Shown here piece after piece: positions 10,791 through 60,846 of a DNA stretch of 64,000 nucleotides; positions within the stretch are counted from its first letter, which is position 1, and each line of letters opens with the position of its first letter. The notes under the pieces are model-generated. The model saw only the letters and a program-made list of their open reading frames with translations. It was not told the origin of the DNA and made no database searches. Made by a program: the position numbers and the translations under genes. The stretch is taken from the NCBI GenBank assembly GCA_964632435.1, contig CAZWEJ010000001.1, positions 1,052 to 65,051 on the forward strand, in the 5' to 3' direction. Source of the DNA: an uncultured Candidatus Saccharimonadales bacterium. Lineage in GTDB: Bacteria > Patescibacteriota > Saccharimonadia > UBA4664 > SCTI01.

Positions 10791-10801
10791 ACATCAGGGT
10801 C

Positions 10802-44130: not shown

Positions 44131-44155
44131 CCGCAACATAATCAATTTCTCTATC

Positions 44156-44172
44156 TGTTGACAGATGTGTCA
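44156..44172 (+). promoter_or_regulatory. Promoter for rplC and downstream genes, with a palindromic TTGACA-gatg-TGTCAA element overlapping the -35
   Basis: TTGACA -35, 17-bp spacer, TTATAT -10; the palindrome is the reverse complement of the element at 28877-28893. Confidence 0.45.
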
Positions 44173-44299
44173 AAACTCTGTTATATTTACTTGGTAACTT
44201 TTGCTCAATTTAGAGCTTAGAACTAGGAGTTGATCTGGTCCGTGAGCCGCGGATACCGCTCGAATCCTAGAATTTGTTTTGTTTAATATAAGGAGTGGC

Positions 44300-44938: not shown

Positions 44939-45570
44939 TGGCCCAAGCAATTATTTATTCAAAGACAGGAGCTAAGAAAGAGGCTCCAGCAAAGCTCAGC
45001 AGCAAAGTATTCGCTGTCGAAGCTAATAATGACCTTTTAAAGCAGGCTTATGAGACCTACCTAGCTAATGGTCGAGCATCAAGTGCAAAAACAAAGAGCC
45101 GTGGCGAGGTTCGTGGTGGTGGTCGTAAGCCTTGGAAGCAAAAAGGTACAGGGCGAGCGCGTGCAGGTTCAATCCGACTTCCTCACTGGAAGGGCGGTGG
45201 TGTTGCTTTTGGACCAACCGGCGAGCAAAACTACACCAAGGATATGCCAGTTAAAGCCAAGCGAACTGCTATTAGGCAAGCTCTCAGCGTTCAGGCAAAA
45301 GACAAAAAGATTGTCATTCTTGAGTCATTTACAGGCGGCGAAGGCAAGGTCAAGCCAGTTGCTCAACTCCTAGACAAAATCAATCTTGATGGAAGCGTCC
45401 TAATCGTTGTTTCCGAGAAGACGCCTGTTATTGATCGTGCAACTCGCAATCTTCCAGGAGTAAAGGTTGTTTCGGCAAAATACCTCAATGTTTTCTCAAT
45501 TCTTAACGCCGACTGGGTCGTAATGACTACTGACGCGGAAAAGATCGTAACAGAATGGCTGGAGGCGTAG
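44938..45570 (+). CDS. rplD: 50S ribosomal protein L4
   Basis: GGGRKPWKQKGTGRAR motif. Confidence 0.95.
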   Translation: MAQAIIYSKTGAKKEAPAKLSSKVFAVEANNDLLKQAYETYLANGRASSAKTKSRGEVRGGGRKPWKQKGTGRARAGSIRLPHWKGGGVAFGPTGEQNYTKDMPVKAKRTAIRQALSVQAKDKKIVILESFTGGEGKVKPVAQLLDKINLDGSVLIVVSEKTPVIDRATRNLPGVKVVSAKYLNVFSILNADWVVMTTDAEKIVTEWLEA

Positions 45571-45571
45571 C

Positions 45572-45856
45572 ATGAGCATGGCACTAGTACCACGAGTAAG
45601 CGAAAAGGCTATGGCACTTGCCGAGCAGGGAGTTTACGTATTTAACGTCCCTACAACCGCAAACAAGATTGAGGTAGCGAAGGAAGTCGAGAAGGCCTTC
45701 AACGTTAGCGTGGTTGATGTAAACATTTTGATCCATAAGGGCAAGCAAGTATCTAGGCGATACGGCAAGAATGCTGGGAAGCGCAATAATACCAAAAAAG
45801 CCATGGTTACGGTAAAGAAGGGGCAGAAAATAGCCCTGTTTGAGGAGGGCAAGTAA
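45572..45856 (+). CDS. rplW: 50S ribosomal protein L23
   Basis: Conserved L23 sequence; operon order. Confidence 0.93.
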   Translation: MSMALVPRVSEKAMALAEQGVYVFNVPTTANKIEVAKEVEKAFNVSVVDVNILIHKGKQVSRRYGKNAGKRNNTKKAMVTVKKGQKIALFEEGK

Positions 45857-46692
45857 TGGCAGTTCGACTATACAAGCCAACGACTCCAGGTCGACGAGGA
45901 ATGACCTCGATCGATACAAGTCAAATTACCAAGAAGAAGCCAGAGAAGTCACTTCTTGTGCCTATGAAGGCTGGTTCCGGTCGAAACAACCAGGGTCGAA
46001 TTACCATTCGTCACCGAGGTGGAGCGGTGAAGCGCTTCTATCGATTGGTTGATTTCCGACTTGTACCTGGGTTTAGTGGCAAGATTACCGCAATTGAGTA
46101 CGACCCAAACCGCAGTGCGCACATTGCCTTGGTCGAACTAAAGAATGGCAAGAAAGCCTATATCCTTGCAGGTAATGATATGAAAGTTGGGCAGAAGATT
46201 GAAAGCGGCTCAGATGTGGAGATTCGCCGAGGCAATCGATTGCCACTTGCCAACATCCCTGTAGGTACTCAGATTTACAATATTGAGCTAGTTCTCGGCA
46301 AAGGCGGTCAAATTGCTCGTAGCGCTGGAACAAAAGCCCAGCTCGTCGCAAAAGAAGGTGAGTTTTGCCAGGTCCGACTTCCTAGTGGGGAAGTTCGTCT
46401 TGTGAATCAGAACTGCATGGCAACAATCGGTGCTGTCGGTAACGAGGCTCACCAGAACGTTAAGTATGGTAGCGCCGGTCGTCGTCGTCGAATGGGTTGG
46501 CGCCCTACCGTTCGCGGTAAGGCTATGAACCCAGTTGATCACCCTCACGGTGGTGGAGAAGGTGGTACCGATATCGGTTTGAAGCATCAGAAGACCCCTT
46601 GGGGTAAGGCAGCACTTGGTCTTAAGACCCGACGCCGCAAATTAACAGACCGCATGATTGTACGCGGACGTAAGCAAGGTAGGAGACGCTAA
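45856..46692 (+). CDS. rplB: 50S ribosomal protein L2
   Basis: Conserved L2 sequence (HPHGGGEG). Confidence 0.97.
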   Translation: MAVRLYKPTTPGRRGMTSIDTSQITKKKPEKSLLVPMKAGSGRNNQGRITIRHRGGAVKRFYRLVDFRLVPGFSGKITAIEYDPNRSAHIALVELKNGKKAYILAGNDMKVGQKIESGSDVEIRRGNRLPLANIPVGTQIYNIELVLGKGGQIARSAGTKAQLVAKEGEFCQVRLPSGEVRLVNQNCMATIGAVGNEAHQNVKYGSAGRRRRMGWRPTVRGKAMNPVDHPHGGGEGGTDIGLKHQKTPWGKAALGLKTRRRKLTDRMIVRGRKQGRRR

Positions 46693-46968
46693 ATGAGTCG
46701 TTCACTCAAAAAAGGCCCATACGTAGATGAAAAGTTGATGAAAAAAGTCGACAAGCTTAGTGCTGGCGACAAGACGGTAATCAAGACTTGGGCTCGATCA
46801 AGCACTATCACACCTGAAATGGTTGGTTTTACTTTTGCTGTTCACAACGGACGACAACATCTTCCAGTATTCGTTACAGAGAATATGGTTGGTCACAAGT
46901 TAGGTGAGTTCTCTCCTACCCGTAAATTCCGTGGTCACGGCGGTAAGCTGGCGAAAGGTAAGAAATAA
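46693..46968 (+). CDS. rpsS: 30S ribosomal protein S19
   Basis: [15 protein letters not shown]... Confidence 0.97.
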
Positions 46969-47345
46969 TGAACGTTCGTGCTAAAGCAAAATTCGTTGGC
47001 ACTTCACCTCGCAAAATCAGCTTGGTCGCTGCTCTTATTCGTGGCAAAAAAGTTGATGAGGCAAGAACTGTTCTCAACAACACCCAAAAGCGCGCTACCG
47101 ATCCAGTTGGCAAAGTTTTGAATAGTGCTATTGCTAATGCCGAGAACAACTTCAACTTGAGTTCGAAGAACTTGATTGTTGAGTCGGTCCTTGTCGGCCC
47201 TGGCCCAACCCTAAAGCGATTTCGCCCCCGAGCGCAGGGTCGCGCAGCTTCAATCTTAAAGCGAACTAGCCACATAACTGTGGTGTTGAAAGATTCATCA
47301 AAGGCTAAGGCAACAGACGTTAAGGCCAAGAAGGAGGCCAAATAA
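46968..47345 (+). CDS. rplV: 50S ribosomal protein L22
   Basis: Conserved L22; operon order. Confidence 0.95.
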   Translation: MNVRAKAKFVGTSPRKISLVAALIRGKKVDEARTVLNNTQKRATDPVGKVLNSAIANAENNFNLSSKNLIVESVLVGPGPTLKRFRPRAQGRAASILKRTSHITVVLKDSSKAKATDVKAKKEAK

Positions 47346-47974
47346 TGGGACAGAAAGTAAATCCGCGCAGTCTGCGCCTACAAGTTGATAAAGACTGGCA
47401 GTCAAAGTGGTTTGCCAGTAAGCAGACCTATGCTGATCAGCTGGTTGAAGACGTTAAGCTTCGCCGTGCTGTCGAAGGTAAGCTCAGTCGACGCGCCGGT
47501 GTTTCTCGAGTAGACATCGAGCGATCACCAAATCTCATTACGGTCACAATTTATACATCAAAGCCAGGAGTTGTTATCGGTCGAGGTGGAAGTGGCGCCG
47601 AAGAGCTCAAAAAGCTGCTTGTTAAGATCTGCAATGCGCCCGTCAAGGTCAGCATTGAGGAGATAAAGCGCCCAGAAACCAACGCCAAATTGGTTGCCGA
47701 AAACATTGCAGGTCAGCTTGAGCGACGAATTTCATTTAGGCGAGCTATGAAAATGGCTGCCGAGAATGCAGTTAAGTCAGGCGCTAAAGGTGCAAAGATA
47801 ACCGTCGCTGGTCGTTTAAATGGCGCTGAAATGGGTCGCCGCGAAACTGTTGCTAACGGGTCAATTCCTTTGCACACTTTACGAGCAGACATTGATTACG
47901 CCCATGCTGAGGCAAAAACAACCTACGGCATCATTGGTGTCAAGGTATGGATATTTAAAGGAAACAAGTTCTAG
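47345..47974 (+). CDS. rpsC: 30S ribosomal protein S3
   Basis: MGQKVNPRSLRL..., KH domain. Confidence 0.97.
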   Translation: MGQKVNPRSLRLQVDKDWQSKWFASKQTYADQLVEDVKLRRAVEGKLSRRAGVSRVDIERSPNLITVTIYTSKPGVVIGRGGSGAEELKKLLVKICNAPVKVSIEEIKRPETNAKLVAENIAGQLERRISFRRAMKMAAENAVKSGAKGAKITVAGRLNGAEMGRRETVANGSIPLHTLRADIDYAHAEAKTTYGIIGVKVWIFKGNKF

Positions 47975-47983
47975 AGGTCGATT

Positions 47984-48415
47984 ATGTTAATGCCAAAGAA
48001 GACAAAGTACAGAAAGCAGTTCAAGGGAAGAATTCCTAAGGGCCCTGCTACCCGTGGCACAGAACTAGCTTTTGGCCAGTTCGGACTACGTTCTGAGGGC
48101 ACAGAGCGAATTACCTCACGACAGATTGAGGCCGCCAGACGAGCCATGACTCGACACATCAAGCGTGGTGGTAAGGTTTGGATCCGTATCTTCCCAGATT
48201 TGCCTGTTACCAAGAAGCCTGCTGAAGTAAGCATGGGTAGCGGAAAAGGTTCAATTGACCACTACGCTGCTCGAGTACGACCAGGACGAATTATGTTTGA
48301 AATGGATGGTGTCCGCGAGGATCTAGCTCGAGAGGCAATGAGACTTGCTGGGCGTAAGTTGCCGGTTAAGACAAAGTTTGTGGTTCGCCACACTCCAGGG
48401 GAGACCTCAGAATGA
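47984..48415 (+). CDS. rplP: 50S ribosomal protein L16
   Basis: [16 protein letters not shown]... Confidence 0.97.
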
Positions 48416-48621
48416 AAGTAAAAGAGATCACCCAGAAGACCGACAAGGAGTTGATGACCCTGCTAATTGACTCACGAAAGAAGCTAGCCGATGCAAAGGT
48501 GGAGCTTAGGACTAAGCAGGTAAGTAATGTTAAAGAAATACTAGCTTTGCGAAAGACCATTGCACGTGTGCTGACGGTTCAACGCGAGCGAGAGCTAACC
48601 AAGGAGGAAGCAAATGGCTAG
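48412..48621 (+). CDS. rpmC: 50S ribosomal protein L29
   Basis: Conserved L29; operon order. Confidence 0.93.
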
Positions 48622-48862
48622 ACGACTGCGAGGAACAGTTTCCTCCAACAAAATGGATAAGACAGTAGTTGTAAAGGTAGAACGTGTTAAAGAGCACCCT
48701 ATTTACCGCAAGAAGTACACGGTGACAACAAACTTCAAGGCTCATGACGAGAAGAACTCATGCCAAGTTGGCGATCTTGTCGATATCATTGAGAGTCGCC
48801 CAATTAGCAAAGATAAGCATTGGGTAGTCGAGAAGAAGGTTACCGCTAAGGAGTTGAAGTAA
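48614..48862 (+). CDS. rpsQ: 30S ribosomal protein S17
   Basis: Conserved S17. Confidence 0.95.
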
Positions 48863-49230
48863 TGGTTCAGGCCGAATCAAGATTAAAAGTAGCTGATAAC
48901 AGCGGCGCCCGCGAGGTGCTGTGTATCAAGGTGCTTGGTGGATCACGACGACGCTACGCCGGTATTGGTGACATTATCACTGCATCCGTGAAGTCTGCAG
49001 CTCCTAATGGCAACGTCAAAAAGAAAGAGGTTGTTCAGGCGGTTGTAGTACGAACTACCAAAACCACTCGACGCCCCGACGGTAGCCAGATTCGCTTTGA
49101 CGATAACGCTGTTGTCATTATTGATAAGAATAAGCAGCCTCGAGCAACCCGTGTTTTTGGACCAGTCGCTCGAGAACTTCGTGACGGTGGTTACATGAAG
49201 ATCATTTCCCTCGCGCCGGAGGTGCTCTAA
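48862..49230 (+). CDS. rplN: 50S ribosomal protein L14
   Basis: Conserved L14. Confidence 0.97.
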
Positions 49231-49595
49231 TGAAGATACGTAGAGAAGACCAGGTTATGGTCATCACCGGAAAAGACAAGGGCAAGACCGGCAAGGTAAC
49301 TCAGGTCATACCCAAGAGGAATGCGGTTATTGTTGACGGCTTGAATGTTGTAAAACGGCACACAAAGCCATCAGATAAGTTCCCACAGGGTGGAATTCTA
49401 GAGATCAATAAGCCAATAGATGCCTCAAAAGTTATGGTGCTTGACCCAACTTCGGGTAAGCCCGCAAGAGTTGGTTACAGGCTAACAAAGGATGGTGTTA
49501 AAGAGCGAGTCTTTAAAGAATCGCGCTACGCCAAGCCTAAAAAAGCAGAGAAAGCATCAAAGGATGCAAAAGATAAGAAAGAGAAGAAGGCCTAG
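49230..49595 (+). CDS. rplX: 50S ribosomal protein L24 (Lys-rich C-terminal tail)
   Basis: KOW motif; operon order. Confidence 0.95.
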   Translation: MKIRREDQVMVITGKDKGKTGKVTQVIPKRNAVIVDGLNVVKRHTKPSDKFPQGGILEINKPIDASKVMVLDPTSGKPARVGYRLTKDGVKERVFKESRYAKPKKAEKASKDAKDKKEKKA

Positions 49596-49597
49596 TC

Positions 49598-50143
49598 ATG
49601 AGTAGACTACGAGAAAAATATCAGAAAGAGATAAAGAAGCAGCTCAAGCAAGAGCTGGGCCTAGCTAATGATCATCAAATACCGAAGGTTGAGAAAGTAG
49701 TAGTCAACGCTGGAGTTGGGCGAGCAGTTGCTGATAGTAAGCATATTGAGCACGTGACCAACACAATTACTAAGGTTACCGGCCAAGCGCCTGTCACTAC
49801 TGTCGCCAAGAACAGTATTGCTGGCTTCAAGCTTCGTGACGGCAACAAGATTGGTGTAAGCGTTACCCTGCGTGGTGAGCGAATGTATGAGTTTCTTGAT
49901 AGGTTGGTTTCAATCACTATTCCTCGAATTAGAGACTTCCGTGGGATCTCAACCACGGCGTTTGATAAGCAGGGCAATTACAGCATCGGCCTTAAAGATC
50001 AAACCGTATTTCCAGAGATCAGCTATGAAGAAGCAGGAACACCCCACGGTCTTCAGGTAAACATTGTTACTACCGCTAAGACCAAAGAGGAGAGTAAAAA
50101 ATTACTAGAATTAATGGGATTTCCCTTTAGGAGGAACAGCTAA
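49598..50143 (+). CDS. rplE: 50S ribosomal protein L5
   Basis: Conserved L5. Confidence 0.97.
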
Positions 50144-50328
50144 TGGCACGAGTAGCCTTGGTCGCAAAGGCCAATAAAAAGCCAAAGTTTTCGACCCGCA
50201 AGGTCAATCGCTGCAAGCTGTGCGGTCGACCTCGAGGTTATATACGTAAGTTCGGTATGTGCCGAATTTGCTTCCGCGAGCACGCAAGCCGTGGACAGAT
50301 CCCTGGCGTAACTAAGGCCAGTTGGTAA
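50143..50328 (+). CDS. rpsZ: 30S ribosomal protein S14 type Z (zinc-binding, 61 aa)
   Basis: CxxC...CxxC motif (CKLCGRP...CRICFRE). Confidence 0.95.
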
Positions 50329-50338
50329 GGAGAGCACG

Positions 50339-50725
50339 ATGACAGATCCAATCGCAGATATGTTAACAAGAATTAGAAACGCCATCGCGGCAGGTCGCGA
50401 ATCGGTGGTAGTGCCTCATTCCAAAATTAAGGAATCACTGGCCTCAATCTTAAAGCAAAACAACTTTATTGCTGACTATCGTGTTGAAGAAGTTGATGGC
50501 TTTAAGACAATCATAATCACCGTTAAAGAAGGAGACCGGCCAGCAATTAGCTCACTACAGCGAGTAAGCAAGCCAGGTCGAAGAGTCTACACCAGCAGCA
50601 AGGATATTCCTTTGGTGCTTGGTGGACGCGGAATGGTTATCCTTTCTACCTCAGGTGGATTGATGACTGGCCGTGAGGCACGCCAAAAAGGCCTCGGCGG
50701 TGAATTAATCTGTAAGGTGTGGTAA
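50339..50725 (+). CDS. rpsH: 30S ribosomal protein S8
   Basis: [15 protein letters not shown]... Confidence 0.97.
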
Positions 50726-50726
50726 G

Positions 50727-51263
50727 ATGAGTCGAATTGGACGACAACCTATCGAAGTGCCAGCAGGTGTAAACGTTGAGTTTGAAGGCGACGTAATCAT
50801 GGCAACCGGTCCAAAAGGGACCCTTGAGGTCAAACTTCTACCCGGTCTTAAGGTTGAGCAGAACGAAAACGTTCTCACCGTTGTTAAAAAGCTTGATAAC
50901 GAAGAGACTCAGCGCACTTTTGGTTTGCAGAGAACCCTTATCAACAACATTGTTGTAGGCGTTAGCCAAGGTTATGAACGCCGATTGGAAATTAACGGCG
51001 TCGGTTACCGAGCAAACGTAGCGGGTAACATCATCAACCTTTCTCTTGGCTACTCTCACCCGATTGAGTTCAAGCTCCCTCAAGGTGTTGAGGCTAAGGT
51101 AGAAAAGAACCTGATTATTCTCAACAGCGCCGATAAGCAGCTTGTTGGGCAAGTAGCAGCAAATATCCGCGCCCTACGCAAGCCGGAACCATATAAAGGT
51201 AAGGGCATCAAGTATGTAGAGGAGCGCATTAGGCGCAAGGCCGGAAAGGCGGCAACAAAGTAA
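50727..51263 (+). CDS. rplF: 50S ribosomal protein L6
   Basis: Conserved L6. Confidence 0.97.
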   Translation: MSRIGRQPIEVPAGVNVEFEGDVIMATGPKGTLEVKLLPGLKVEQNENVLTVVKKLDNEETQRTFGLQRTLINNIVVGVSQGYERRLEINGVGYRANVAGNIINLSLGYSHPIEFKLPQGVEAKVEKNLIILNSADKQLVGQVAANIRALRKPEPYKGKGIKYVEERIRRKAGKAATK

Positions 51264-51613
51264 TGAGTATGAATGTGTTAACTAATAAAGATCAGCGTAG
51301 AAAGCGAATTCGGGCCAAGATTTGGGGCACCGCTGAGCGACCACGCCTTAGTGTTAATATCAGCAATAAGCATATTGTGGCTCAGTTGATTAACGATGAT
51401 AAGGGTGTAACTCTCGGGTATGTTTCAACTGTTGGCAATAAGGATGTTAAAGGAAATATGACCGAAAAGGCAAAGACAGTCGGCGAGCAAATTGCAGCTA
51501 TAGCATCAAAGAAGAAGATCAAAACTGTGATCTTTGATCGAGGCACCAGAATTTACCACGGCCGTCTGGCAGCTTTAGCAAATGCCGCTAGAGATAAGGG
51601 ATTGGAGTTTTAG
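51263..51613 (+). CDS. rplR: 50S ribosomal protein L18
   Basis: Conserved L18. Confidence 0.95.
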   Translation: MSMNVLTNKDQRRKRIRAKIWGTAERPRLSVNISNKHIVAQLINDDKGVTLGYVSTVGNKDVKGNMTEKAKTVGEQIAAIASKKKIKTVIFDRGTRIYHGRLAALANAARDKGLEF

Positions 51614-51614
51614 T

Positions 51615-52148
51615 ATGGCAATTCAACAGCAGCCAAAAGAATTTGAAGAGACAGTAATTGCCATCGACCGCGTAGCGAGAGTCGTTAAGGGTGGACGAAG
51701 ATTCCGATTTAGGGCAACTGTCGTTATCGGTGACGGTAAAGGCCGAGTTGGGCTTGGTATTGGTAAAGGCGGCGAGGTTATCACTGCAATTGCTAAGGCA
51801 GTTGCTCGCGCTCGACGCAATATGATTACTATTCCTTTGAAGAATGGCACCATCCCCCACGAAGTTACAGTTCGTTTCTCCGGGGCACAGGTAATGCTGA
51901 AGCCTGCCTCAGATGGTACCGGTGTTATTGCCGGTGGTGCGGTTAGAAATGTAGTTGAGCGAGCCGGCATTCATAATCTGTTGACCAAGTCGTTTGGCTC
52001 AACAAACAAGGTGAATAATGCCTATGCTACAATTATGGCACTGTCGCAGCTTGAGCCGGTTGAATCAAGCCCAATCCCTCGAGCAAAAGCGCTTCGAGAT
52101 GCCAAGCAGACCAAAGAAACCAAACCAAAGACTAAGGCGGCTGCTTAA
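51615..52148 (+). CDS. rpsE: 30S ribosomal protein S5
   Basis: The ATG at 51615 (MAIQQQPKEFEE...) is preferred over the longer ORF that overlaps rplR. Confidence 0.95.
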   Translation: MAIQQQPKEFEETVIAIDRVARVVKGGRRFRFRATVVIGDGKGRVGLGIGKGGEVITAIAKAVARARRNMITIPLKNGTIPHEVTVRFSGAQVMLKPASDGTGVIAGGAVRNVVERAGIHNLLTKSFGSTNKVNNAYATIMALSQLEPVESSPIPRAKALRDAKQTKETKPKTKAAA

Positions 52149-52157
52149 GGATAGACT

Positions 52158-52640
52158 ATGAAGATTCATGAATTAACAGTTTCATCAAAACAAGACCGAA
52201 AGAGGGTTGGTCGCGGTATTGGTTCCGGCACCGGTAAAACTGCCGGTCGAGGTACAAAAGGCCAAAATTCAAGGTCTGGAGGCGGTGTACGCCCTGGGTT
52301 CGAAGGCGGACAAAACCCGTTAGCCAAGCGATTGCCAAAGAAGCGTGGTTTCCGAGCCCTCAACCCAACTAACTACACAGTAATTAGCCTATCGCGTATT
52401 GAAACCCTTAAAGGCTCAAAGCTAGACAATGCCTCATTGGTTGATGCAGGGATTACTGCAAACCTAAGCACTCCAGTTAAAGTTCTTGGAACCGGCAAGC
52501 TTACTCGCAAAGTCGATGTAAAACTTCAGGCAGCAACTTCAACAGCTAAGGCTGCAATCGAAAAAGCTGGTGGATCATTTACAGTAGCTACCGTTGTAAA
52601 AAGCCCCAAGAAGCCATCAAAGCGTAATAGAAAGTCGTAA
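52158..52640 (+). CDS. rplO: 50S ribosomal protein L15
   Basis: Conserved L15; it follows rpsE directly with no L30 gene between. Confidence 0.95.
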   Translation: MKIHELTVSSKQDRKRVGRGIGSGTGKTAGRGTKGQNSRSGGGVRPGFEGGQNPLAKRLPKKRGFRALNPTNYTVISLSRIETLKGSKLDNASLVDAGITANLSTPVKVLGTGKLTRKVDVKLQAATSTAKAAIEKAGGSFTVATVVKSPKKPSKRNRKS

Positions 52641-52644
52641 TTAG

Positions 52645-53958
52645 GTGGACTGGGCGACACTAAAGCAAGCCTTACGTTCATCAGATTTGCGGCGGCGTAT
52701 CGGATTTGTTCTGTTTATACTGGTTCTTTTCCGGGTTCTTTCTTATGTCCCAGTTCCAGTTCCCGACAACGCTGCGCTGTCCTCATTTTTAAATAACCTC
52801 TTTAATAGCAGCCAGCTGCTAGGTTTTGCAGATCTATTTTCTGGTGGAAGTCTTAGTAATTTCTCGATCATCATGATGGGTCTCGGACCTTACATCAACG
52901 CGTCTATTATTGTTCAATTGATGACTCGGGTTATACCTCAACTCGAAGCCTTAAGCAAAGAAGGTGAAGCCGGTAGGAGGAAGATTAATCAATACACAAG
53001 ACTTCTTACGTTACCCTTAGCAGTTGTGCAATCAATTGCTATGGTGATTCTAATCCAAAAGACTTCTGTTCAAATTGCCAATACTGACTTAATTGGCAAC
53101 CCTAGTATTTTTGATTGGTTCCTTATGGTTATCACGATGACTGCGGGTACGATGCTGTTAATGTGGATGGGTGAGCTGATAACTGAGCGCGGCGTCGGAA
53201 ACGGTATTTCTCTGATTATTGTGGCTGGAATAGTCGCGTCCATACCTGCAAATATTATTCAAAACTACAGCTTGGTGGTGAATGATACTGGTAAATTGCT
53301 ACAAACGTTGGCCATTGCTGCAGGTGCTCTTGCAGTTACGTACATAATTGTTCAGCTAAACGAAGGGCATCGGTCGATTCCAGTTTCGTATGCTCGTCGA
53401 ATTAGAGGTAACAGGGTATTCTCTGGTGTCGATACCTATATGCCAATTAAGCTAATAACGGCTGGGGTTATACCAATTATCTTTGCGCTAGCCTTTTTGG
53501 CAGTCCCTCCATTTCTTGGGCAGCTACTTTCCGGTGCAAGTACTGCTTGGGTATCAGCCTTCGGCACGTGGCTAACCACAACCTTTGCAGCAACCAGCAT
53601 CTGGTATGCGGGCTCATATTTCTTCTTGGTTGTAGGGTTTACGTACTTCTATACTTCAATTATTTTCAATTCGACGGAAATAGCCGAAAATATGCAGAAG
53701 AATGGCGGGTTTATACCAGGTATTAGGCCGGGCACAGAAACCGCAGCCTATTTAAAGAAGGTCATTAATAGATTGACTCTATTTGGCGCAATAGCCCTAG
53801 GTTTAATAGCAATAATGCCATTTATAGTAGAGCGCTTTACAGGTACGACCTCCCTAACTATTGGAGGAACCAGCCTGTTGATTATCGTGGCTGTAGCGCT
53901 TGAAACAATGAAGCAAATCCGCTCAAGAGTCATACAAATTAGCTATGACAATTATTAA
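52645..53958 (+). CDS. secY: Protein translocase subunit SecY
   Basis: GTG start; 10 TM helices and a conserved SecY plug/pore region. Confidence 0.95.
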   Translation: MDWATLKQALRSSDLRRRIGFVLFILVLFRVLSYVPVPVPDNAALSSFLNNLFNSSQLLGFADLFSGGSLSNFSIIMMGLGPYINASIIVQLMTRVIPQLEALSKEGEAGRRKINQYTRLLTLPLAVVQSIAMVILIQKTSVQIANTDLIGNPSIFDWFLMVITMTAGTMLLMWMGELITERGVGNGISLIIVAGIVASIPANIIQNYSLVVNDTGKLLQTLAIAAGALAVTYIIVQLNEGHRSIPVSYARRIRGNRVFSGVDTYMPIKLITAGVIPIIFALAFLAVPPFLGQLLSGASTAWVSAFGTWLTTTFAATSIWYAGSYFFLVVGFTYFYTSIIFNSTEIAENMQKNGGFIPGIRPGTETAAYLKKVINRLTLFGAIALGLIAIMPFIVERFTGTTSLTIGGTSLLIIVAVALETMKQIRSRVIQISYDNY

Positions 53959-54028
53959 TGCAAATTTTACGCAAAAACTCCTTTACAGATCTGAAAAAAA
54001 TCTGTATTATATCTACTTGTAGCTCATT

Positions 54029-54253
54029 ATGTCAGATACAAAGGAAGTAATCGAACTATCCGGAACCGTTCTGGAGACCCTCCCAAACGCAATGTTTAGG
54101 GTTGAGCTCGAGAACGGTCACGTTATTTTAGCCCATATCTCTGGGAAAATGCGTATGCACTATATTCGCATATTGCCTGGAGACAAGGTGACTGTTCAAA
54201 TGACCCCATATGATCTGACAAAAGGCCGAATTACTTATCGGCATAGAGATTAA
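54029..54253 (+). CDS. infA: Translation initiation factor IF-1
   Basis: S1-like fold; conserved IF-1 sequence. Confidence 0.95.
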
Positions 54254-54268
54254 GTTTAGAGGATTAGC

Positions 54269-54382
54269 ATGAAAGTACGCCCCAGCGCAAAAAAGATGTG
54301 TTCTAAGTGCAAAATCGTTCGTCGCGAACGGGTAGTTTACGTTATCTGCGAAAATCCTCGACACAAGCAGAGGCAAGGTTAA
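54269..54382 (+). CDS. rpmJ: 50S ribosomal protein L36
   Basis: My own translation: [37 protein letters not shown]. The stop overlaps the rpsM ATG. Not in the ORF track because it is under 60 aa. Confidence 0.9.
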
Positions 54383-54768
54383 TGGCTCGTATTGCTGGTG
54401 TTAACATCCCAAATGATAAAAGAGTTGAGATAGCTCTCACTTATATATATGGGATTGGCCTCACGACTAGTCAGAAAATCCTGGCCACAACCGGCATCAA
54501 CCCAAATACAAGGGTTAAAGATCTGACAGAAAGCGAAGTTATTAAGCTTCGAGAAGAGATTGATAAGAACTTAACAGTTGAAGGCGATCTTCAGCGAGTT
54601 GTTTCTCAGTCAATATCCAGATTGAAAGAGATTAACTCTTACCGTGGGCTTCGCCACAAGAACAACCTTCCAGCTCGCGGACAGCGAACTAAGACCAATG
54701 CACGAACAAAGCGAGGCAAGAAGGTCACAGCTGGCAGTGGACGTAAAAAAGCAGCATCAAAGACTTAG
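54382..54768 (+). CDS. rpsM: 30S ribosomal protein S13
   Basis: The ATG at 54382 ([10 protein letters not shown]...) is preferred over the longer track ORF. Confidence 0.95.
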
Positions 54769-54783
54769 GATTAATTAGAAACA

Positions 54784-55179
54784 ATGGCAACCAAGACTGC
54801 AACTAAAGCAAGACGTAGAAAAACCAAGCGCAATGTCGCTGTTGGTGTTATGCATGTTCATGCTACGTTCAACAACACCATTATTACTATTGCTGATGAA
54901 AACGGAAACTCACTAGCATGGGCAAGCTCTGGAGCGAGTGGGTTTAAGGGCTCGAGAAAATCAACTCCCTACGCAGCACAGGTAGCAGCCGAAAAAGTTG
55001 CACAGTCTGCTAAGGATATGGGTATGCAGCGAGTAAGCGTTGAAGTTCGCGGGATTGGAAGCGGTCGAGAATCCGCCATTCGCGCACTGAGCGCAGTTGG
55101 AATTCAGGTAGCAAGCATAAAGGATGTTACCGGTATTCCTCACAACGGTTGCCGACCACGAAAGCCGAGGAGAGTCTAA
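54784..55179 (+). CDS. rpsK: 30S ribosomal protein S11
   Basis: Conserved S11. Confidence 0.97.
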
Positions 55180-55796
55180 TGGCACGAGATCTTGCACCAA
55201 TCGTAAAGCGTTCAAGACGCGAAAAGACTGCTCTTCATCCAAAGGCGGTAAAGGGGCTTACTCTTCGCAATTATGCTCCTGGCCAACACGGTCAGTCCAT
55301 GATGCGCTCAAAGATGAGCCAGTATGCGGTTCAGCTTCGAGAAAAGCAGAAGGTAAAGCGCATGTACGGTTTGCTTGAAAAGCAGTTCAGACGCGTTATC
55401 GCCGAGGCTGAGCGTAGGCAAGGTGTTACAGGTGATATTATGGTTCAATTGCTTGAACAGCGCCTAGATAATGCTGTATACCGCCTAAATTGGGCAATCA
55501 GCCGACAGGCGGCCCGTCAATTGGTTACACATGGTCACATTTTGCTCAACGGTAAGCGAGTTGATATCCCATCAATTCAGCTTAAGCCAGGTGATGAGCT
55601 TGAGGTTAGAGCAAAAAGTGCTTCAAATGCCTACTTCACCGCTCTTAAAGAGCAGTTGGCAAGCAATCAATCAACAGTTGGTTGGTTAAGTTCAGATGCA
55701 AAGAAACTTAAGGCTAAGGTTACAGGAGCCCCTTCACGCGAAGACGTGACTGAGGAGATCAACGAACAGTTAATCATTGAGTTCTACTCAAGGTAA
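55179..55796 (+). CDS. rpsD: 30S ribosomal protein S4
   Basis: The ATG at 55179 overlaps the rpsK stop; S4 N-terminal domain plus S4 RNA-binding domain. Confidence 0.93.
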   Translation: MARDLAPIVKRSRREKTALHPKAVKGLTLRNYAPGQHGQSMMRSKMSQYAVQLREKQKVKRMYGLLEKQFRRVIAEAERRQGVTGDIMVQLLEQRLDNAVYRLNWAISRQAARQLVTHGHILLNGKRVDIPSIQLKPGDELEVRAKSASNAYFTALKEQLASNQSTVGWLSSDAKKLKAKVTGAPSREDVTEEINEQLIIEFYSR

Positions 55797-55819
55797 GTAA
55801 TAAAGGAAGGAATTAGAAG

Positions 55820-56761
55820 GTGTTGTACGACATTCAACTCCCAAACATCAAGACCGTCAAAGAGGATGGCAATCGCGCAACCTTTGCGATTGAGCCACTT
55901 TACTCTGGCTATGGTATGACATTAGGGAACAGCCTACGCCGTGTTATTCTTTCAAGCTTGGGTGGTGCAGCTGTCACTGCCGTAAAGATTGATAACGTGG
56001 CTCACGAGTTCTCAACAATTGATGGCGTCAAAGAAGACGTTGTTGAGATTATTTTAAACTTAAAGAAGCTTCGCTTCCGAGTTTATAGTGATGAGCCTCA
56101 GTACATTATCCTCACCAAAAAAGGTAAGGGGAATGTTACTGCTGCAGATATTAAGACAAACTCCGATATCGAGATTGTTAACACAGATCAACACATTGCA
56201 ACGATCGATAACGACAAGACTCAGATTGGAATGGAGATTAAGGTTGAGAAGGGCCGTGGATACATTCCTGTAGAGGCTCGCGAGAACGAGAAGCTCGAAG
56301 TAGGTATGATAGCTGTTGATGCGCTTTACAGCCCAGTTCGACGAGTTCGCTACAATGTTGAGAATACTCGTGTTGGTCAGGTTACCGACCTCGATCGATT
56401 GGTTCTTGAGGTAGAGACCGATGGCTCAATAAGCCCAATGGACGCAGTCACTCAGGCAGCCGAGATCTTGGTACGCCACTTCTCAGTCGTTGGCGGTCAA
56501 ACTGCTCCTGTTGGCGAAACTCAAGAAGTCGCTGAGGACAGCAAAGAATCAAATGCAGCTAAGATCATGATTGAGGAGGTAAACTTTACACCTCGAACAA
56601 CTAACGCGCTGCTCAATAACGATATTCGCACTATGAAGGATCTTCTTCGATTAACCGATAGTGAGCTAAAGGAGCTAAAGGGATTTGGTGCTAAGGCTTA
56701 CGATGAGGTCAAGGACAAGATCGCAGAGCTCGGTTTCGCTAAAGAGACAGAGGAAGTTTAA
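55820..56761 (+). CDS. rpoA: DNA-directed RNA polymerase subunit alpha
   Basis: GTG start after AAGGAAGG; conserved N-terminal dimerisation domain and a C-terminal domain. Confidence 0.95.
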   Translation: MLYDIQLPNIKTVKEDGNRATFAIEPLYSGYGMTLGNSLRRVILSSLGGAAVTAVKIDNVAHEFSTIDGVKEDVVEIILNLKKLRFRVYSDEPQYIILTKKGKGNVTAADIKTNSDIEIVNTDQHIATIDNDKTQIGMEIKVEKGRGYIPVEARENEKLEVGMIAVDALYSPVRRVRYNVENTRVGQVTDLDRLVLEVETDGSISPMDAVTQAAEILVRHFSVVGGQTAPVGETQEVAEDSKESNAAKIMIEEVNFTPRTTNALLNNDIRTMKDLLRLTDSELKELKGFGAKAYDEVKDKIAELGFAKETEEV

Positions 56762-57256
56762 ATGCACCGTCACGGTTATAAAGGTCGAAAACTACAACTC
56801 GAAGCCGGTCCTCGCCGGGCGCTGATTCGTGGTCAGGTTACCTCATTGGTTCTGCACGAGCAGATTACCACAACTGAGGCCAAAGCTAAGGAAATTGCTC
56901 CTTACTTCGAGAGACTTGTAACTAAGGCCAAAAAGGGTGACCTACATAACCGTCGCCAGATACGATCGTTTTTAACTACCGATAAGGCAACTCAAAAGCT
57001 AATTGAAGAAATTGCGCCGGTATTTAAAGACCGTAATGGCGGTTACACTCGAATTGTTAAGCTCGGCAACCGACAGGGCGACAACGCCAAAATGGCTGCT
57101 GTGATGCTTACTGAAAAGCCAAAAAGAGTTGCTACAGAAAAGGCAAAGACAGAGACCAAGGGTAAGATTGAGGACAAGCCTAAAGCAGAAACCAAGAAAG
57201 CTGCCCCTAAGAAGGATGCTAAACCTAAGGCTAAATCAGCTAAGGGAGATAAGTAA
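56762..57256 (+). CDS. rplQ: 50S ribosomal protein L17 (Lys/Ala-rich C-terminal tail)
   Basis: Conserved L17 core. Confidence 0.95.
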   Translation: MHRHGYKGRKLQLEAGPRRALIRGQVTSLVLHEQITTTEAKAKEIAPYFERLVTKAKKGDLHNRRQIRSFLTTDKATQKLIEEIAPVFKDRNGGYTRIVKLGNRQGDNAKMAAVMLTEKPKRVATEKAKTETKGKIEDKPKAETKKAAPKKDAKPKAKSAKGDK

Positions 57257-57687
57257 TGAAGACATATTCCGCAAAACCATCAGAACTTACGCATGATTGG
57301 TATGTAATCGATGCCAGTAACCAAACTCTTGGCCGTATTTCTACAATTATTGCTACTCACTTGATGGGGAAGCATAAGCCGCAGTATACCTCACATATTG
57401 ATTGTGGGGACAATGTTGTGGTTATCAATGCAGAGAAAATACAGGTTACTGGGAACAAGTTAACCGAGAAGAAGTATTACCGACATTCGGGCTATCCAGG
57501 CGGAATAAAAGAAAAAGTACTCGAGGACGTACTTTCAAGCCATCCCGAAAGAGTTATTGAACACTCCGTAAAGGGGATGCTTCCAAAGAACCGATTACAG
57601 GATGTACGAATGAAGAGATTAAAGGTTTACGCCGGTCCAGAGCATCCACATGGTCCGCAGAATCCTAAAGAATTGGGAGCTAATTAA
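57256..57687 (+). CDS. rplM: 50S ribosomal protein L13
   Basis: Conserved L13. Confidence 0.97.
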   Translation: MKTYSAKPSELTHDWYVIDASNQTLGRISTIIATHLMGKHKPQYTSHIDCGDNVVVINAEKIQVTGNKLTEKKYYRHSGYPGGIKEKVLEDVLSSHPERVIEHSVKGMLPKNRLQDVRMKRLKVYAGPEHPHGPQNPKELGAN

Positions 57688-58085
57688 TGGCTGAAAACTC
57701 AAAGTATTATTACGGCTTAGGCCGCAGAAAAGAATCAGTTGCAACTGCCCGACTATACCAGGGTGGTGGCGAGATAGTGGTTGGCGAGAAAACCGCTGAT
57801 GAGTATTTCAATAATAAGTCACTAACACTCCTATTACAGCAACCAATAGCTCTTGCGGGGCGCGAAAAGAAACTTCGAGTAACTCTAAGTGTCAAAGGTG
57901 GCGGTAAGCGTGGCCAGGCCGAGGCAGCACGGCTCGCTATTTCTAGAGCATTGGAGGAGATGGACGAGAATTTGCGCCCAACACTTAAGAAAGCGGGCTA
58001 TTTAACTCGAGACCCACGGGAGAAAGAGCGCAAGAAGCCCGGATTGAAGCGTGCTCGAAAAGCACCTCAGTTTAGTAAGCGATAA
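57687..58085 (+). CDS. rpsI: 30S ribosomal protein S9
   Basis: Conserved S9; C-terminal KR tail. Confidence 0.97.
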   Translation: MAENSKYYYGLGRRKESVATARLYQGGGEIVVGEKTADEYFNNKSLTLLLQQPIALAGREKKLRVTLSVKGGGKRGQAEAARLAISRALEEMDENLRPTLKKAGYLTRDPREKERKKPGLKRARKAPQFSKR

Positions 58086-58104
58086 ACAAAAATATTTCAA
58101 AAAA

Positions 58105-58134
58105 AGAACCGCCATGATGGCGGTTCTTTTTATT
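58105..58134 (+). terminator. Rho-independent terminator after rpsI
   Basis: agaaccgcc-atgat-ggcggttct stem followed by ttttatt. Confidence 0.75.
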
Positions 58135-58419
58135 CTCGACCTAAGACATTAATAAAATTAATAGCTTGGGTTGAGTGACAAAGTGAGTGAGATGCAGGTG
58201 GGTGAGGCACGCTAGATGCCTCACCCTCCCTTTCCGCTAGATACCTGCATTCGGAAAAGCTGCTCCATCGGTAAAGATGCGTAGTGAATCCGACCACGCT
58301 ACGCGCCCGATTGGCGGCACATAGGCCGCGCTAAAGCTGGAGAGCCTTGAAGTTTTACGGGGCAACCTCCGTGTCGCCCCGATTTGTCCCCCCCGTGCCA
58401 TTCTTGGCGCGAGCTTGTT

Positions 58420-59694
58420 TTACTTCTTGGTCTTCGAACGCCGACGAGCGCCCTTGGTTCCGGAGCGCTCACCCTTGGCGTTAACGCCCACGTTGCCGCG
58501 ACGGTTACGCCTCGGGTCGTCCGGACCCTGCGGGTTAGCCTTACCGATCCTGGGGCCGGCTCCAGGAATCTTCGGGGTGTTAGGCTCCTTCGACTTCTTG
58601 GCGGCCTTGGAGCCACCAGCCTTTCCGCGGTTGCGCTGATCGACCTGCTTGACCCGATTACTGCTTGCGCGAGCATCGCGGTCGAGCTTGCTCAGAACCA
58701 TCATGAGCTTGCTGTCCAGCTTGAGGTTCCCCCTCAGAATGCGCAGCGCATGGTGAATATCACGAACGTTCTGTCGGGTCTTCAGGATCTCCTCCGCCAG
58801 ATTCTCAATCGGCTGAGTCATCAGCATCATGAGGTACGAGCCGGGGTCGATCTCCTTGATCCCCTCGCTGAAGGCGTTGATCCGCCTCTGGCGAGTGGCT
58901 TCGATCTCCGAGATCATCTCGGAGATCTTCTGCTGAGCCGCCGCCCTCTTGCTGAGGCTCTGAAGAGCGATGATCATCGAGGCGTTGGGCCGAAGCTGCG
59001 CCTTCATGATCCGCACGGCGTTCAGCTCGCCGTAGACCGAGTTGCCCTCCTTCAGAAGCGTCTCGATGAGCTTATCGAGAGGCTCATTGAAGATCCGATG
59101 GAGGTACGTGCCCTCATCGATCAGATGGAGGTCATCCATGAACTCCTCCCGAAGGGTATCGATGCGACGCTGGAGGGCGGCCTTCTCGGACTCAGCCTTG
59201 GTGGTACCCTCATCGCACAGGCGCTTCAGCGTCTGCATGAAGTCGCTCTCATCCTCGAGCTGCTTCATAACCCCCAACATCGCTTCGGTGACCGTAATGC
59301 CACGCCTTCTGGCGTCGTACGTTGCGGTCTGCATGAGGGGGAAGTGGATCAGGTGGTAGAGCCGGGTGTCCTGCTTGATCAGACTCACGCCGTTGCCGTA
59401 CTTGGCAATCGCGTCCGTCTTGAGACGCTCGGCTTTCGCCGAGACCTCGTTGAGATCAACGCTGTCGCCCTCGACGTAGCCGGTCGAGAGATCCTCGACG
59501 CGGTGACGCCTGGGAGCGCTACCAGTAGTCGAGCGCTTGGGGCGACTCTTCCGCCCCTTCTGCCTGCGAGGCCGACGCGACCTGATCGCCTGCCCGAAAG
59601 CAGACATCAGTTCGTCGGTTGTCGCGACCCGATCGTCGGCCGGGGCCGGATCGGAGGTCTCCCCCTGGGGATTGACCTGGGGCGAAATCGCCAT
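58420..59694 (-). CDS. GC-rich foreign-looking gene: 424-aa protein with an internally duplicated helical domain and strongly basic Arg/Lys-rich N- and C-terminal tails (candidate nucleic-acid-binding protein)
   Basis: Minus-strand ORF with protein-like composition, whereas the plus-strand antisense ORF is L/R/G-rich. The start at 59694 is preferred because of the RBS GAGGTGA 4 nt upstream. Internal repeat: LIDEGTYLHRIFNEPLDKLIETLLK versus EIDPGSYLMMLMTQPIENLAEEILK. Local GC is about 60% against about 46% for the flanks. Confidence 0.55.
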   Translation of the reverse strand: MAISPQVNPQGETSDPAPADDRVATTDELMSAFGQAIRSRRPRRQKGRKSRPKRSTTGSAPRRHRVEDLSTGYVEGDSVDLNEVSAKAERLKTDAIAKYGNGVSLIKQDTRLYHLIHFPLMQTATYDARRRGITVTEAMLGVMKQLEDESDFMQTLKRLCDEGTTKAESEKAALQRRIDTLREEFMDDLHLIDEGTYLHRIFNEPLDKLIETLLKEGNSVYGELNAVRIMKAQLRPNASMIIALQSLSKRAAAQQKISEMISEIEATRQRRINAFSEGIKEIDPGSYLMMLMTQPIENLAEEILKTRQNVRDIHHALRILRGNLKLDSKLMMVLSKLDRDARASSNRVKQVDQRNRGKAGGSKAAKKSKEPNTPKIPGAGPRIGKANPQGPDDPRRNRRGNVGVNAKGERSGTKGARRRSKTKK

Positions 59695-59856
59695 GTTATC
59701 ACCTCGTTTGGGAAGAGCCATAACTTCTGACTCACTTTGTCAAAAAAACATCCGGATTGTTGCACCCGGAAGTTGCGCCAATATTAACATAACTATCTTT
59801 ATCTGTCAACCACCTTACGTCTGGCCACTAAAACATAACCGCTATATAATAATTTT

Positions 59857-60846
59857 GTGAGCACTAGAAGATTACCGTGGAAAATTATACTCGCGGCACT
59901 TATTACTGTTGCGTTTGGGACAATCGCATTTGTTGAGTTTGAGCGTCTATCCTACCCAGACGCCTTCTACCATACGCTTCTGGTTATGCTTAGGCATTTC
60001 GGGTATGTTGAAGTCCATGATCCGATTGCAAGGTTCGTAAACGTTGCGCTCATACTCATCAGCTTTGTTCTCATAGGTTATTTGATTAAGTGGTTTGCAG
60101 AATATATCATTGGTGTAAGTGATTCGGTGCGAAAAAAAAGATTGGAAGCAAAAGTTAGCAAAATGAAACATCATTATATTGTCTGCGGTCTCGGTCGAGT
60201 CGGTAGTCAGGTCGCTCGTGAAATGAAGATGGAAGACGTCGAGTTTGTGGGTGTAGATCGGGACGATAATAAGGTTCAAGAAGCTATTGCCGCTGGTTAT
60301 ACTGCATTCCAGGGTGATAGCTCGGCCGAAGAGGTTCTCAAGTCGGCTGGTATTGATCATGCTGCAGGTTTGGTTGCAAGTCTTGGAGACGATTCAGCTA
60401 ATCTGCTGGTAGTTCTAGCAGCTCGCGCCATCAACCCCGATTTATACATAGTGGCGAGAGCTAATCGTGCAGAAAATGAAGTCAAGCTCAAGCGCGCGGG
60501 TGCAGATAGAGTGGCGCTACCTTACCAGATAGGTGGTTATCATATGGCTTCAATGGCCCTCAGGCCAAGTGTGGTTGATTATATGGATGTCGTTAGCAGC
60601 TCAGGCCAAGCTACAGACCTACAGGTTGAGGAGATGGTCGTGCACGAACACTCCAAGCTTGCTGGTCATAGATTGGGTAAAGCTCTCACCGAGGGAGCCG
60701 TGGGGGCAACAGTCATAGCGATCAATGGCTCTGATGGCAGTAGCCGAGTAAGACCTACGGGAAATGAAGTTATCTACCCCGGGGACAGGTTAATAGTCCT
60801 CGGTCGTAAAAATGACCTAACACGGGCATCCGAACTGGTTCAATGA
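59857..60846 (+). CDS. Potassium channel protein with a TrkA-N (RCK) domain (Kch-like)
   Basis: GTG start; N-terminal TM segments, a pore region, and a Rossmann motif YIVCGLGRVGSQVA followed by a TrkA-C-like domain. Confidence 0.75.
   Translation: MSTRRLPWKIILAALITVAFGTIAFVEFERLSYPDAFYHTLLVMLRHFGYVEVHDPIARFVNVALILISFVLIGYLIKWFAEYIIGVSDSVRKKRLEAKVSKMKHHYIVCGLGRVGSQVAREMKMEDVEFVGVDRDDNKVQEAIAAGYTAFQGDSSAEEVLKSAGIDHAAGLVASLGDDSANLLVVLAARAINPDLYIVARANRAENEVKLKRAGADRVALPYQIGGYHMASMALRPSVVDYMDVVSSSGQATDLQVEEMVVHEHSKLAGHRLGKALTEGAVGATVIAINGSDGSSRVRPTGNEVIYPGDRLIVLGRKNDLTRASELVQ

Follow-up and report, generated by a model that had tools for sequence, protein, structure and literature searches.

A GC-rich gene of Candidatus Saccharimonadales with a predicted end-paired, highly structured messenger RNA and a possible selection on RNA behind its codon usage

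The DNA analysed here, hereafter the window, is a stretch of 64,000 nucleotides from an uncultured Candidatus Saccharimonadales bacterium (contig CAZWEJ010000001.1), in which a single gene on the minus strand (58420-59694, 424 aa, TAA stop) occupies a GC-rich segment between the ribosomal-protein gene rpsI and trkA. We propose that this gene encodes a lineage-specific, probably nucleic-acid-binding protein from a hyper-structured mRNA, paired at its ends, probably stable and gated at the level of translation, and that selection acting on the RNA keeps the G+C content of the third codon positions (GC3) high; to this reading as a whole we assign a probability of about one half. A first-pass annotation of the same DNA, made from the letters alone, had described a foreign-looking islet in an organism that might belong to the Candidate Phyla Radiation (CPR). 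The organism is indeed a CPR bacterium, and those in which we found the gene form a small clade of Candidatus Saccharimonadales.

The abrupt switch to about 60% GC reported by the first-pass annotation is evident in both our 300-nt and 1-kb scans, and the segment, unmatched in its extent, covers 58176-59742. The rest of the window has 41-51% GC (every other 1-kb bin at 0.41-0.51), and in the 300-nt scan the value goes from 0.46 (58000-58299) to 0.55-0.65 (about 58150 to 59800) and back to 0.44. The segment starts and stops at the two arms of an inverted repeat, and just beyond the 3' arm the GC content drops from about 0.59 to the level of the host. A mechanical call gives a longer open reading frame (ORF) on the minus strand (58420..59721, 433 aa); we take the gene to be 58420..59694, as the orthologous 5' regions align on a start at Met10, with AGAGGTGATAAC ahead of ATG-GCG. 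The upstream in-frame ATG of the longer ORF is missing in the orthologues and lies inside a predicted Shine-Dalgarno hairpin (59695-59721), so that it is probably unused. On the other hand, the start codon and the Shine-Dalgarno GAGGTGA (59705-59699) are kept among the orthologues, and the product of 424 aa with this ribosome-binding site, as originally called, was thus confirmed.

The gene has a GC content of 0.61, against 0.42-0.49 in the neighbouring genes, and its excess is almost wholly at codon position 3. In fact, GC1 (0.60) and GC2 (0.44) are ordinary, and GC3 is 0.79, to be compared with 0.38-0.46 in seven neighbours and with 0.34-0.52 in those genes of the window whose annotation is clear. 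Only 14 of the 433 codons of the window allele end in A; the share of A at third positions (A3) is 3-8%, and the codon usage resembles that of organisms with about 60-65% GC. As had been noticed at first sight, both strands are open: a plus-strand ORF (58384..59730, 448 aa) runs codon-aligned antisense to the gene. An overlapping antisense gene was considered as the cause of the high GC3 and rejected, the frame being broken in two orthologues (1 stop in L006, 2 stops in L007). The missing TTA, CTA and TCA codons are what a general avoidance of A3 predicts, and the antisense ORF is therefore best seen as a by-product of shunning A-ending codons. That the minus frame is the coding one, as the first reading held, is indicated by the differences among orthologues, which amount to 13, 12 and 32% at codon positions 1, 2 and 3 (dN/dS, the ratio of nonsynonymous to synonymous divergence, about 0.26).

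All four copies of the gene, in the lineages of the window (L001), L006, L007 and L015, lie between trkA and rpsI and face the ribosomal-protein operon in convergent orientation; in L015, a gene for an FMN reductase and an ORF of 31 aa separate the orthologue from rpsI (11229-11949). An identical allele with both junctions was recovered in at least five independent assemblies (ENA and Logan), which excludes the chimeric assembly that the first-pass annotation had feared. The islet is a single gene module fixed in the chromosome. Among more distant relatives, which lack the gene, the stretch between rpsI and trkA varies: in L012, a Saccharimonadia metagenome-assembled genome, the two are 86 nt apart (5888-5974), and in two others the interval holds about 3 kb of unrelated ORFs (L014, 2972-5974) or a 370-aa ORF (L011, 1-1303). 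The search of 5.8 billion protein clusters returned three clusters only, namely the allele itself, a 76%-identical and a 49%-identical protein, and a HMMER pass over 1.84 billion representatives added one further distant member, matching through the C-terminal tail. Among about 15 billion proteins no homologue was found elsewhere, the relatives being the three orthologues, all from other Saccharimonadales. No donor homologue from Actinobacteria (Actinomycetota) was present in the protein collections searched, a viral scan gave no homologue in IMG/VR, and tblastn gave none in GenBank phages or PLSDB plasmids. A metagenome scan detected just one more copy of the allele already known, a homology search seeded with P0004 gave nothing new, and a literature search on GC-rich genes of Saccharibacteria brought up no useful report.

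The comparison of the four lineages allowed us to evaluate whether the composition is decaying. The GC3 of the gene is 0.79 in the window allele, 0.77 in L006 and 0.77 in L007, all in genomes of about 46% GC, and 0.84 in L015, whose genome has 55% GC and where the neighbours have a GC3 of 0.59-0.68; the surplus over the local background is therefore about 20-38 points in all four lineages. In every pair of lineages, the synonymous divergence (pS) has reached saturation in the flanking genes (0.71-0.89), and the three closer genomes are mutually equidistant (RluD 72-75% and HolB 70-73% identical). Since the flanks are saturated and GC3 nevertheless stands uniformly at 0.77-0.84, with no amelioration toward the host composition, we conclude that the composition is maintained and is not that of a decaying import. 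Moreover, the pS of the GC-rich gene is below that of the flanks, being 0.39 between L001 and L006 and 0.58-0.62 in the remaining pairs, and its nonsynonymous divergence (dN, 0.14-0.95) equals or exceeds theirs. A low pS combined with such a dN means either that the synonymous sites are constrained or that the module coalesces more recently than the genomes. The foreign islet from an actinobacterial host or a phage, proposed in the first-pass annotation, is not supported by these data, as no donor homologue was found, the orthologues are syntenic and GC3 is maintained; in three other lineages the gene occupies this place between rpsI and trkA and has the same surplus of GC, a situation that the first-pass annotation itself had named as refuting the idea.

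The folding of the coding region was compared with three null models: synonymous-codon shuffles, which keep protein and codon usage, dinucleotide-preserving shuffles, and RNAalifold consensus energies set against codon-column shuffles. All three led to the same result, a predicted RNA much more structured than its shuffled counterparts. With the first, the four orthologues gave z-scores of -6.3, -5.8, -6.4 and -3.8, and 19 control genes of the window a mean of -1.0 (sd 1.6, minimum -4.2). With the second, the values were -7.0, -7.5, -6.2 and -3.8, against -1.9 to +0.4 in 11 controls, three of which were from the 55% GC genome. The consensus energy had a z of -7.1 with two sequences and of -5.4 with three, compared to -0.2 to -2.6 in the flanking genes. 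It has to be considered that estimates from 24-40 shuffles are noisy, as for rpoA, which scored -2.0 in one run and -3.8 in another. Along the transcript, 45% of the 150-nt windows had z < -2, against 3% in a trkA-rluD control, and the strongest structure was in the first 450 nt, in the middle and in the 3' untranslated region (UTR). In all four orthologues the dinucleotide-shuffle z of the sense strand was lower than that of the antisense strand (-6.1, -4.7, -1.9 and -3.0, in the same order).

The ends of the predicted message are complementary to each other. The 5' arm of a long-range inverted repeat, TGACAAAGTGAGTCAGA, lies in the predicted 5' UTR (59726..59742, minus strand), and the 3' arm, TCTCACTCACTTTGTCA, is found at 58176..58192 on the same strand, where the GC-rich segment ends; the arms are 17 nt long, 94% complementary and 1533 nt apart, and their 13-mer has two copies only in the 64-kb window, both being the arms themselves. 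Each of the four lineages has such a repeat around the gene, with changes on both arms: it is 17 nt long and 82% complementary in L006, 10 nt and perfect in L009, and 14 nt and perfect in L015, where GTGAGT is replaced by GCGAGA and the partner has changed to match. In the four-lineage alignment of the long-range helix together with a GC-rich hairpin of the 3' UTR, pairing holds in 86% of the cells, and shifting the partners by 1-3 columns lowers this share to 32-41%. Changes on both sides affect six pairs (4 in the long-range helix and 2 in the hairpin), the shifted controls having 0-1, and values as high as these came up in none of 500 shuffles. When the predicted UTRs were cofolded, the long-range helix formed in four lineages out of four, with a gain of 9-15 kcal/mol, and in unconstrained minimum free energy (MFE) folds of the full transcripts (1.25-1.68 kb) the helix closed the whole predicted message, again in every lineage. 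The locus thus has two of the features of bacterial mRNAs regulated by UTR pairing, namely complementary 5' and 3' UTR segments and their compensatory conservation, the latter in four sequences.

The hairpin included in this alignment, GGGUGAGGCA / UGCCUCACCC, is a GC-rich stem-loop of the 3' UTR (58200..58226, minus strand; outer pairs extend to 58194-58248). It is kept in the four lineages, with 10 pairs 100% paired and 2 pairs changed on both sides, and the presence of G-U pairs in two lineages led us to read it on the sense RNA. Upstream of the module, a predicted sigma-70-type promoter (TTGACA-17 nt-TAATAT, with TG ahead of the -10; 59781..59809, minus strand) matches 10 of 12 consensus positions and lies outside the GC-rich segment, in AT-rich DNA of host-like composition. 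Its -35, its spacing and a TAnnnT -10 are kept in L006 and in L007/8 (TAGAAT) and, less well, in L015 (TACCCT). A few nucleotides past the predicted transcription start, a 5'-proximal stem-loop, UCCGGGU / AUCCGGA (59751..59770, minus strand), is predicted, as is a hairpin at the same spot of the leader in all four lineages, the other stems being CUGGGU/ACCCAG, UUGGGG/CCCCAG and CUUUU/AAAAG. We considered and rejected a leader terminator or attenuator here; the following U-run is not conserved, and the hairpin is thus probably no terminator. Immediately ahead of the coding sequence (58420..59694, minus strand), the predicted fold pairs the Shine-Dalgarno with an upstream CUC-containing stretch (59695..59724, minus strand), and pairings of the Shine-Dalgarno with different sequences were found in the other lineages by eye and in MFE folds (TCTT/AAGA, CTCT/AGAG and ATCCTC/GAGGAT).

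Downstream, the module probably shares its terminator with the rplM-rpsI operon, toward which the gene converges: a bidirectional intrinsic element with A-run, 15-bp stem and T-run is located at 58099..58131 on both strands (perfect palindrome arms at 58101-58115 and 58117-58131) and is kept in L006 and L009. The window allele alone also carries a GC-rich (about 59%) insertion of 195 nt in the 3' UTR (58225..58419, minus strand), opposite an alignment gap of about 185-200 nt in L006, L008 and L009; sequence similar to it was found neither in the rest of the window nor in the fetched orthologous loci. Within the insertion, 60 codons past the TAA stay open in frame, and a readthrough extension of the protein is possible. 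In L008 and L009 (P0003 lineage), and also in L006, a 5'-UTR stretch just 3' of the 5' arm, GCCCACCCUGCAA, is complementary to the 5' half of the 3'-UTR hairpin, UUGCAGGAUGGGC, and is also predicted to pair with the Shine-Dalgarno. These competing pairings hint at mutually exclusive structures and a possible switch. The comparison with Rfam gave only chance matches in the module, driven by the terminator and below the family thresholds, and in the entire window only tRNAs reached the gathering threshold.

A second gene of the window has the same organisation. At 10725-11100, where the GC content is 57-61%, a minus-strand ORF (10802-11083, GC3 0.82) preceded by the Shine-Dalgarno AGGAGG encodes a hydrophobic orphan protein of 93 aa, whose only homologue comes from the same strain. 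A 16-nt inverted repeat of its own, unrelated to that of the 424-aa gene, stands on either side of this gene (10783-10798 / 11089-11104). Folding the predicted 376-nt transcript lets this repeat close the molecule, with a GC hairpin after it (z -4.2; none of 100 shuffles was as stable). That the two genes combine a shared architecture with different repeats points to a transcript-specific pairing of RNA rather than to a common DNA recombination site, and suggests a small class of such genes. Just upstream of nusA, a third GC-rich patch (11400-11775, 57-63% GC) has short ORFs only, such as a Cys-rich one of 69 aa on the plus strand (11491-11700), with no Rfam or Pfam match; its fold has a z of -2.45 on the plus strand and of -0.43 on the minus strand. 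A moderately GC-rich stretch (0.55) also separates a tRNA-Leu from the next long ORF (26373-26822); Rfam gives no match for it, and its only ORF, of 149 aa, is doubtful.

The product of the main gene consists of an acidic N-terminus, a conserved short helix, a basic patch, a helical core with a tandem duplication and a basic C-terminal tail. The internal duplication seen in the first-pass annotation is real, as residues about 171-253 (copy A, 58936..59184, minus strand) and 265-343 (copy B, 58666..58902, minus strand) are 30% identical over 83 aa in BLASTP (E = 1e-11); a possible third copy upstream was not significant. The basic tails and helical centre described there were also found: the pI is 10.1, the net charge is +10 in residues 39-76, +16 in 361-424 and +3 in the core (77-360), and the AlphaFold model has a helical core with a pLDDT (predicted local distance difference test) of 70-86 (residues about 90-368 in the 433-aa numbering) between two tails below 50, predicted to be disordered. 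The protein evolves fast, with 77% and 49% identity between lineages against 95-96% for TrkA. The 64-residue C-terminal tail, however, is near-invariant across lineages despite synonymous change, and forms a conserved motif of its own, not a low-complexity repeat. From these features and from the model we infer that the product would be a protein of helical repeats, fast-evolving and specific to the lineage, with a strongly basic, disordered tail on either side. Searches in Pfam, PHROGs, NCBIfam and PADLOC gave weak coiled-coil noise only, family searches found no transposase domain, a sequence-profile search of the PDB gave spectrin only (E = 0.36), and neither sequence, profile nor fold matched histone-like or nucleoid-associated families (HU, H1-like, Lsr2, Hc1). 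Chlamydia Hc1, the mycobacterial HupB tail and the spectrin-like EzrA resemble it in having disordered, charged tails rich in Lys, Arg, Pro, Gly and Ala, but they differ in that no sequence or profile match links them to this protein, whose own tail is a unique conserved motif. The nucleic-acid-binding role put forward in the first-pass annotation is still a reasonable guess: judged by charge and disorder, the most likely ligand would be nucleic acid, be it nucleoid DNA or RNA, the latter perhaps its own transcript.

Taken together, the data are consistent with a compact 'panhandle' mRNA, in which the ends would be protected, hairpins would stand at both termini and the ribosome-binding site would be masked, and the body of which would expose few single-stranded A/U-rich sites to nucleases. 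With these properties, the message would persist for long, and its translation would wait for an unlocking event such as processing, a change of temperature or the action of a factor. The structure would presumably also shield the untranslated message from Rho and from endonucleases preferring A/U-rich RNA. Selection on the RNA, and not a recent import, would hold the third positions rich in G and C and poor in A, and we infer, by analogy with known mRNAs, a long-lived and translationally gated message.

Several observations weigh against this reading. Inside the coding region, compensatory pairs are no commoner than in shuffled alignments, and there the case for structure is thus thermodynamic only. 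Moreover, the antisense strand too folds better than its own shuffles, and a cause at the level of DNA or of an antisense RNA is possible. The low pS between L001 and L006 could be due to a more recent exchange of the module between lineages, instead of synonymous constraint, and the identities of the protein (77, 49 and 47%) are not star-like, while the distances of the flanks are. The covariation statistics of the end pairing are thin with only four lineages, and the tested structure was derived from the same sequences. Finally, promoter, transcription start and terminator are predictions, all that is said at the RNA level rests on prediction from four lineages, and the function of the protein was read from charge and disorder alone, the searches for families, folds and solved structures being empty.

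An alternative, which we consider rather unlikely, is that the inverted repeat acts as DNA and delimits a cassette, either a mobile single-gene element that passes between related Saccharimonadales or an invertible phase switch that uncouples the gene from an outside promoter. In fact, the module has 17-nt terminal inverted repeats that match the edges of the GC segment exactly, and these part the promoter, outside the 5' arm, from the gene, inside, as expected for an invertible segment. Between lineages the two arms have changed together, which would be expected of recombination sites too; other relatives differ in what lies between rpsI and trkA; L001 and L006 have diverged less at synonymous sites here than in the flanks, with whose distances those of the protein disagree; and the window contains another GC-rich gene bounded by repeats. 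Of the marks of a transposable element, however, only the terminal inverted repeats are present. Neither a transposase nor a recombinase is encoded in the module (a recombinase was not searched for genome-wide), no target-site duplication is seen, the flanks being TTTTTT and CTCAAC, and the repeat motif has just two copies in 64 kb and is unrelated to that of the second gene. Moreover, the mismatched arms of L006 and the 10-nt core left in L009 would be better tolerated by an RNA helix than by a crossover site, and the G-U pairs of the adjacent hairpin point to the RNA level. The module has one orientation in every assembly with flanks, although consensus assemblies hide minority orientations. 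Whether mobile or invertible, a cassette leaves the high GC3 and the RNA structure unexplained.

Slightly less credible, in our opinion, is an old horizontal transfer from a high-GC donor, such as an actinobacterial host or a phage, into the ancestor of the lineages, followed by incomplete amelioration. The locus shares with horizontally acquired GC islets the abrupt shift in GC content and codon usage, with sharp edges, the usage and A3 of organisms of about 60-65% GC, the orphan gene and the variability in distant relatives, the gene being missing from L012, L011 and L014. It differs in that synteny is kept across saturated lineages and in that amelioration, donor homologues and mobility genes were not observed. 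Of what defines a recently acquired island, only the deviant composition was found, and not absence from close relatives, donor homologues or amelioration. In particular, neutral decay over saturated distances should have erased most of the excess, and unevenly in genomes of 46% and 55% GC, but GC3 is uniformly high and highest in the relative with the GC-richer genome. No searched collection contains a homologue outside this locus, promoter and Shine-Dalgarno are host-like and conserved, and the excess RNA structure and the co-varying UTR pairing would have no explanation.

A local recombination hot spot with GC-biased gene conversion, in which strains often exchange a fast-evolving gene, could raise GC3 with no need of an RNA function, and would suit the fast evolution of the protein and a GC3 about 20-38 points over the local background in all four lineages. 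We hold it very improbable, since the boundaries are sharp and placed at UTR elements, with no fading into rpsI or trkA, and synonymous sites have diverged less than those of the flanks, and not more; nor would conversion be expected to produce structure beyond dinucleotide- or codon-preserving shuffles or co-varying end pairing. An artefact, that is a chimeric assembly or a structured non-coding RNA with a chance open frame, might be thought of in view of high-GC DNA open on both strands and of a strongly structured RNA, but was rejected in both forms as scarcely conceivable, because the junctions recur in independent assemblies, substitutions concentrate at codon position 3 with a dN/dS of about 0.26, start codon and Shine-Dalgarno are conserved, the C-terminal tail is near-invariant despite synonymous change, the antisense frame is broken in two orthologues and Rfam gives no match.

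An end-paired, translation-gated message such as the one that we favour would have relatives among known systems. According to Braun, Durand and Condon (2017, PMC5737220), a 14-bp pairing that joins the 5' UTR to the 3' UTR of the Bacillus subtilis hbs mRNA limits the access of RNase Y and so sets the stability of the message. The likeness lies in a 5'/3'-UTR pairing within a single mRNA, here of 10-17 bp, upstream of the Shine-Dalgarno and beside a structured leader. Moreover, hbs encodes a basic nucleoid protein, and the protein studied here is basic-tailed. On the other hand, there is no homology of sequence or protein, and the predicted transcript is about 1.6 kb long instead of about 0.4 kb; GC3 enrichment and excess structure extend over its entire coding region, and masking is predicted for its ribosome-binding site, while that of hbs is strongly occupied. 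In the Staphylococcus aureus icaR mRNA, as described by Ruiz de los Mozos et al. (2013, PMC3868564), the 3' UTR pairs with the Shine-Dalgarno region, blocks initiation and recruits RNase III. The intramolecular 5'-3' UTR interaction, used in icaR for post-transcriptional control, is common to both, and the duplex is a potential substrate of RNase III. By contrast, the helix of our module is 20-110 nt upstream of the Shine-Dalgarno, which is masked by a separate local hairpin, and icaR is not compositionally deviant.

The mRNAs of hok-type type I toxins (hok/sok, Helicobacter AapA1) are closed by 5'-3' pairing, compact, stable and translationally inert until they are processed; their toxins are shorter than 60 aa and are accompanied by a cis-encoded antisense RNA. 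The predicted end-closed message resembles them, and the second gene (10802-11083), with its hydrophobic product of 93 aa, fits even more closely. The main product differs, being a soluble basic protein of 424 aa, and an antisense RNA or antitoxin was not identified.

The genes around the module also deserve a comment. The membrane protein with TrkA_N and TrkA_C domains encoded beside it (59857-60846) is 95-96% identical between lineages in which RluD and HolB are 70-75% identical, an unusually strong conservation for a non-ribosomal gene (window, L006 and L007). In the ribosomal-protein cluster on the other side (L001 11637-21302, corresponding to about 44000-58085 of the window), S5 is directly followed by L15, L30 not being among the called genes, and SecY is directly followed by infA, with no adk or map called between them, a compact layout consistent with a CPR genome.

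An extended form of our proposal, which we regard as speculative and improbable, is a bifunctional RNA, at once a coding message and a conserved ordered RNA like the genome of a virus, with a terminal panhandle, belonging to a small class of episymbiont genes of which the window would contain at least two. In its boldest version, the basic-tailed protein would bind its own hyper-structured, nuclease-resistant RNA, and the codon usage, rich in G/C endings and poor in A, would owe its existence to a message that is stored through a dormant or host-free stage, or is even delivered to a high-GC actinobacterial host and translated there.

Each of the ingredients considered here was already known, that is UTR-UTR pairing, structured mRNAs and orphan genes. 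To our knowledge, what is new is their combination: a lineage-stable GC3 excess over a whole gene, synonymous constraint, structure in the coding region and a co-varying panhandle that recurs in a second gene. Abrupt shifts in GC content are routinely taken as horizontal transfer, and this case warns against relying on composition alone when a transfer from host to symbiont is called. If the selection on RNA structure is true, the gene would be an unusually clear natural example of how the form of an mRNA shapes the codon usage of a whole gene, and it would be so in CPR episymbionts, where post-transcriptional control is essentially unexplored. The gene also defines a new protein family, of very narrow distribution and with a basic C-terminal tail whose conservation is striking; this family is a candidate for a part in nucleoid, RNA or host-interaction biology specific to the symbiont.

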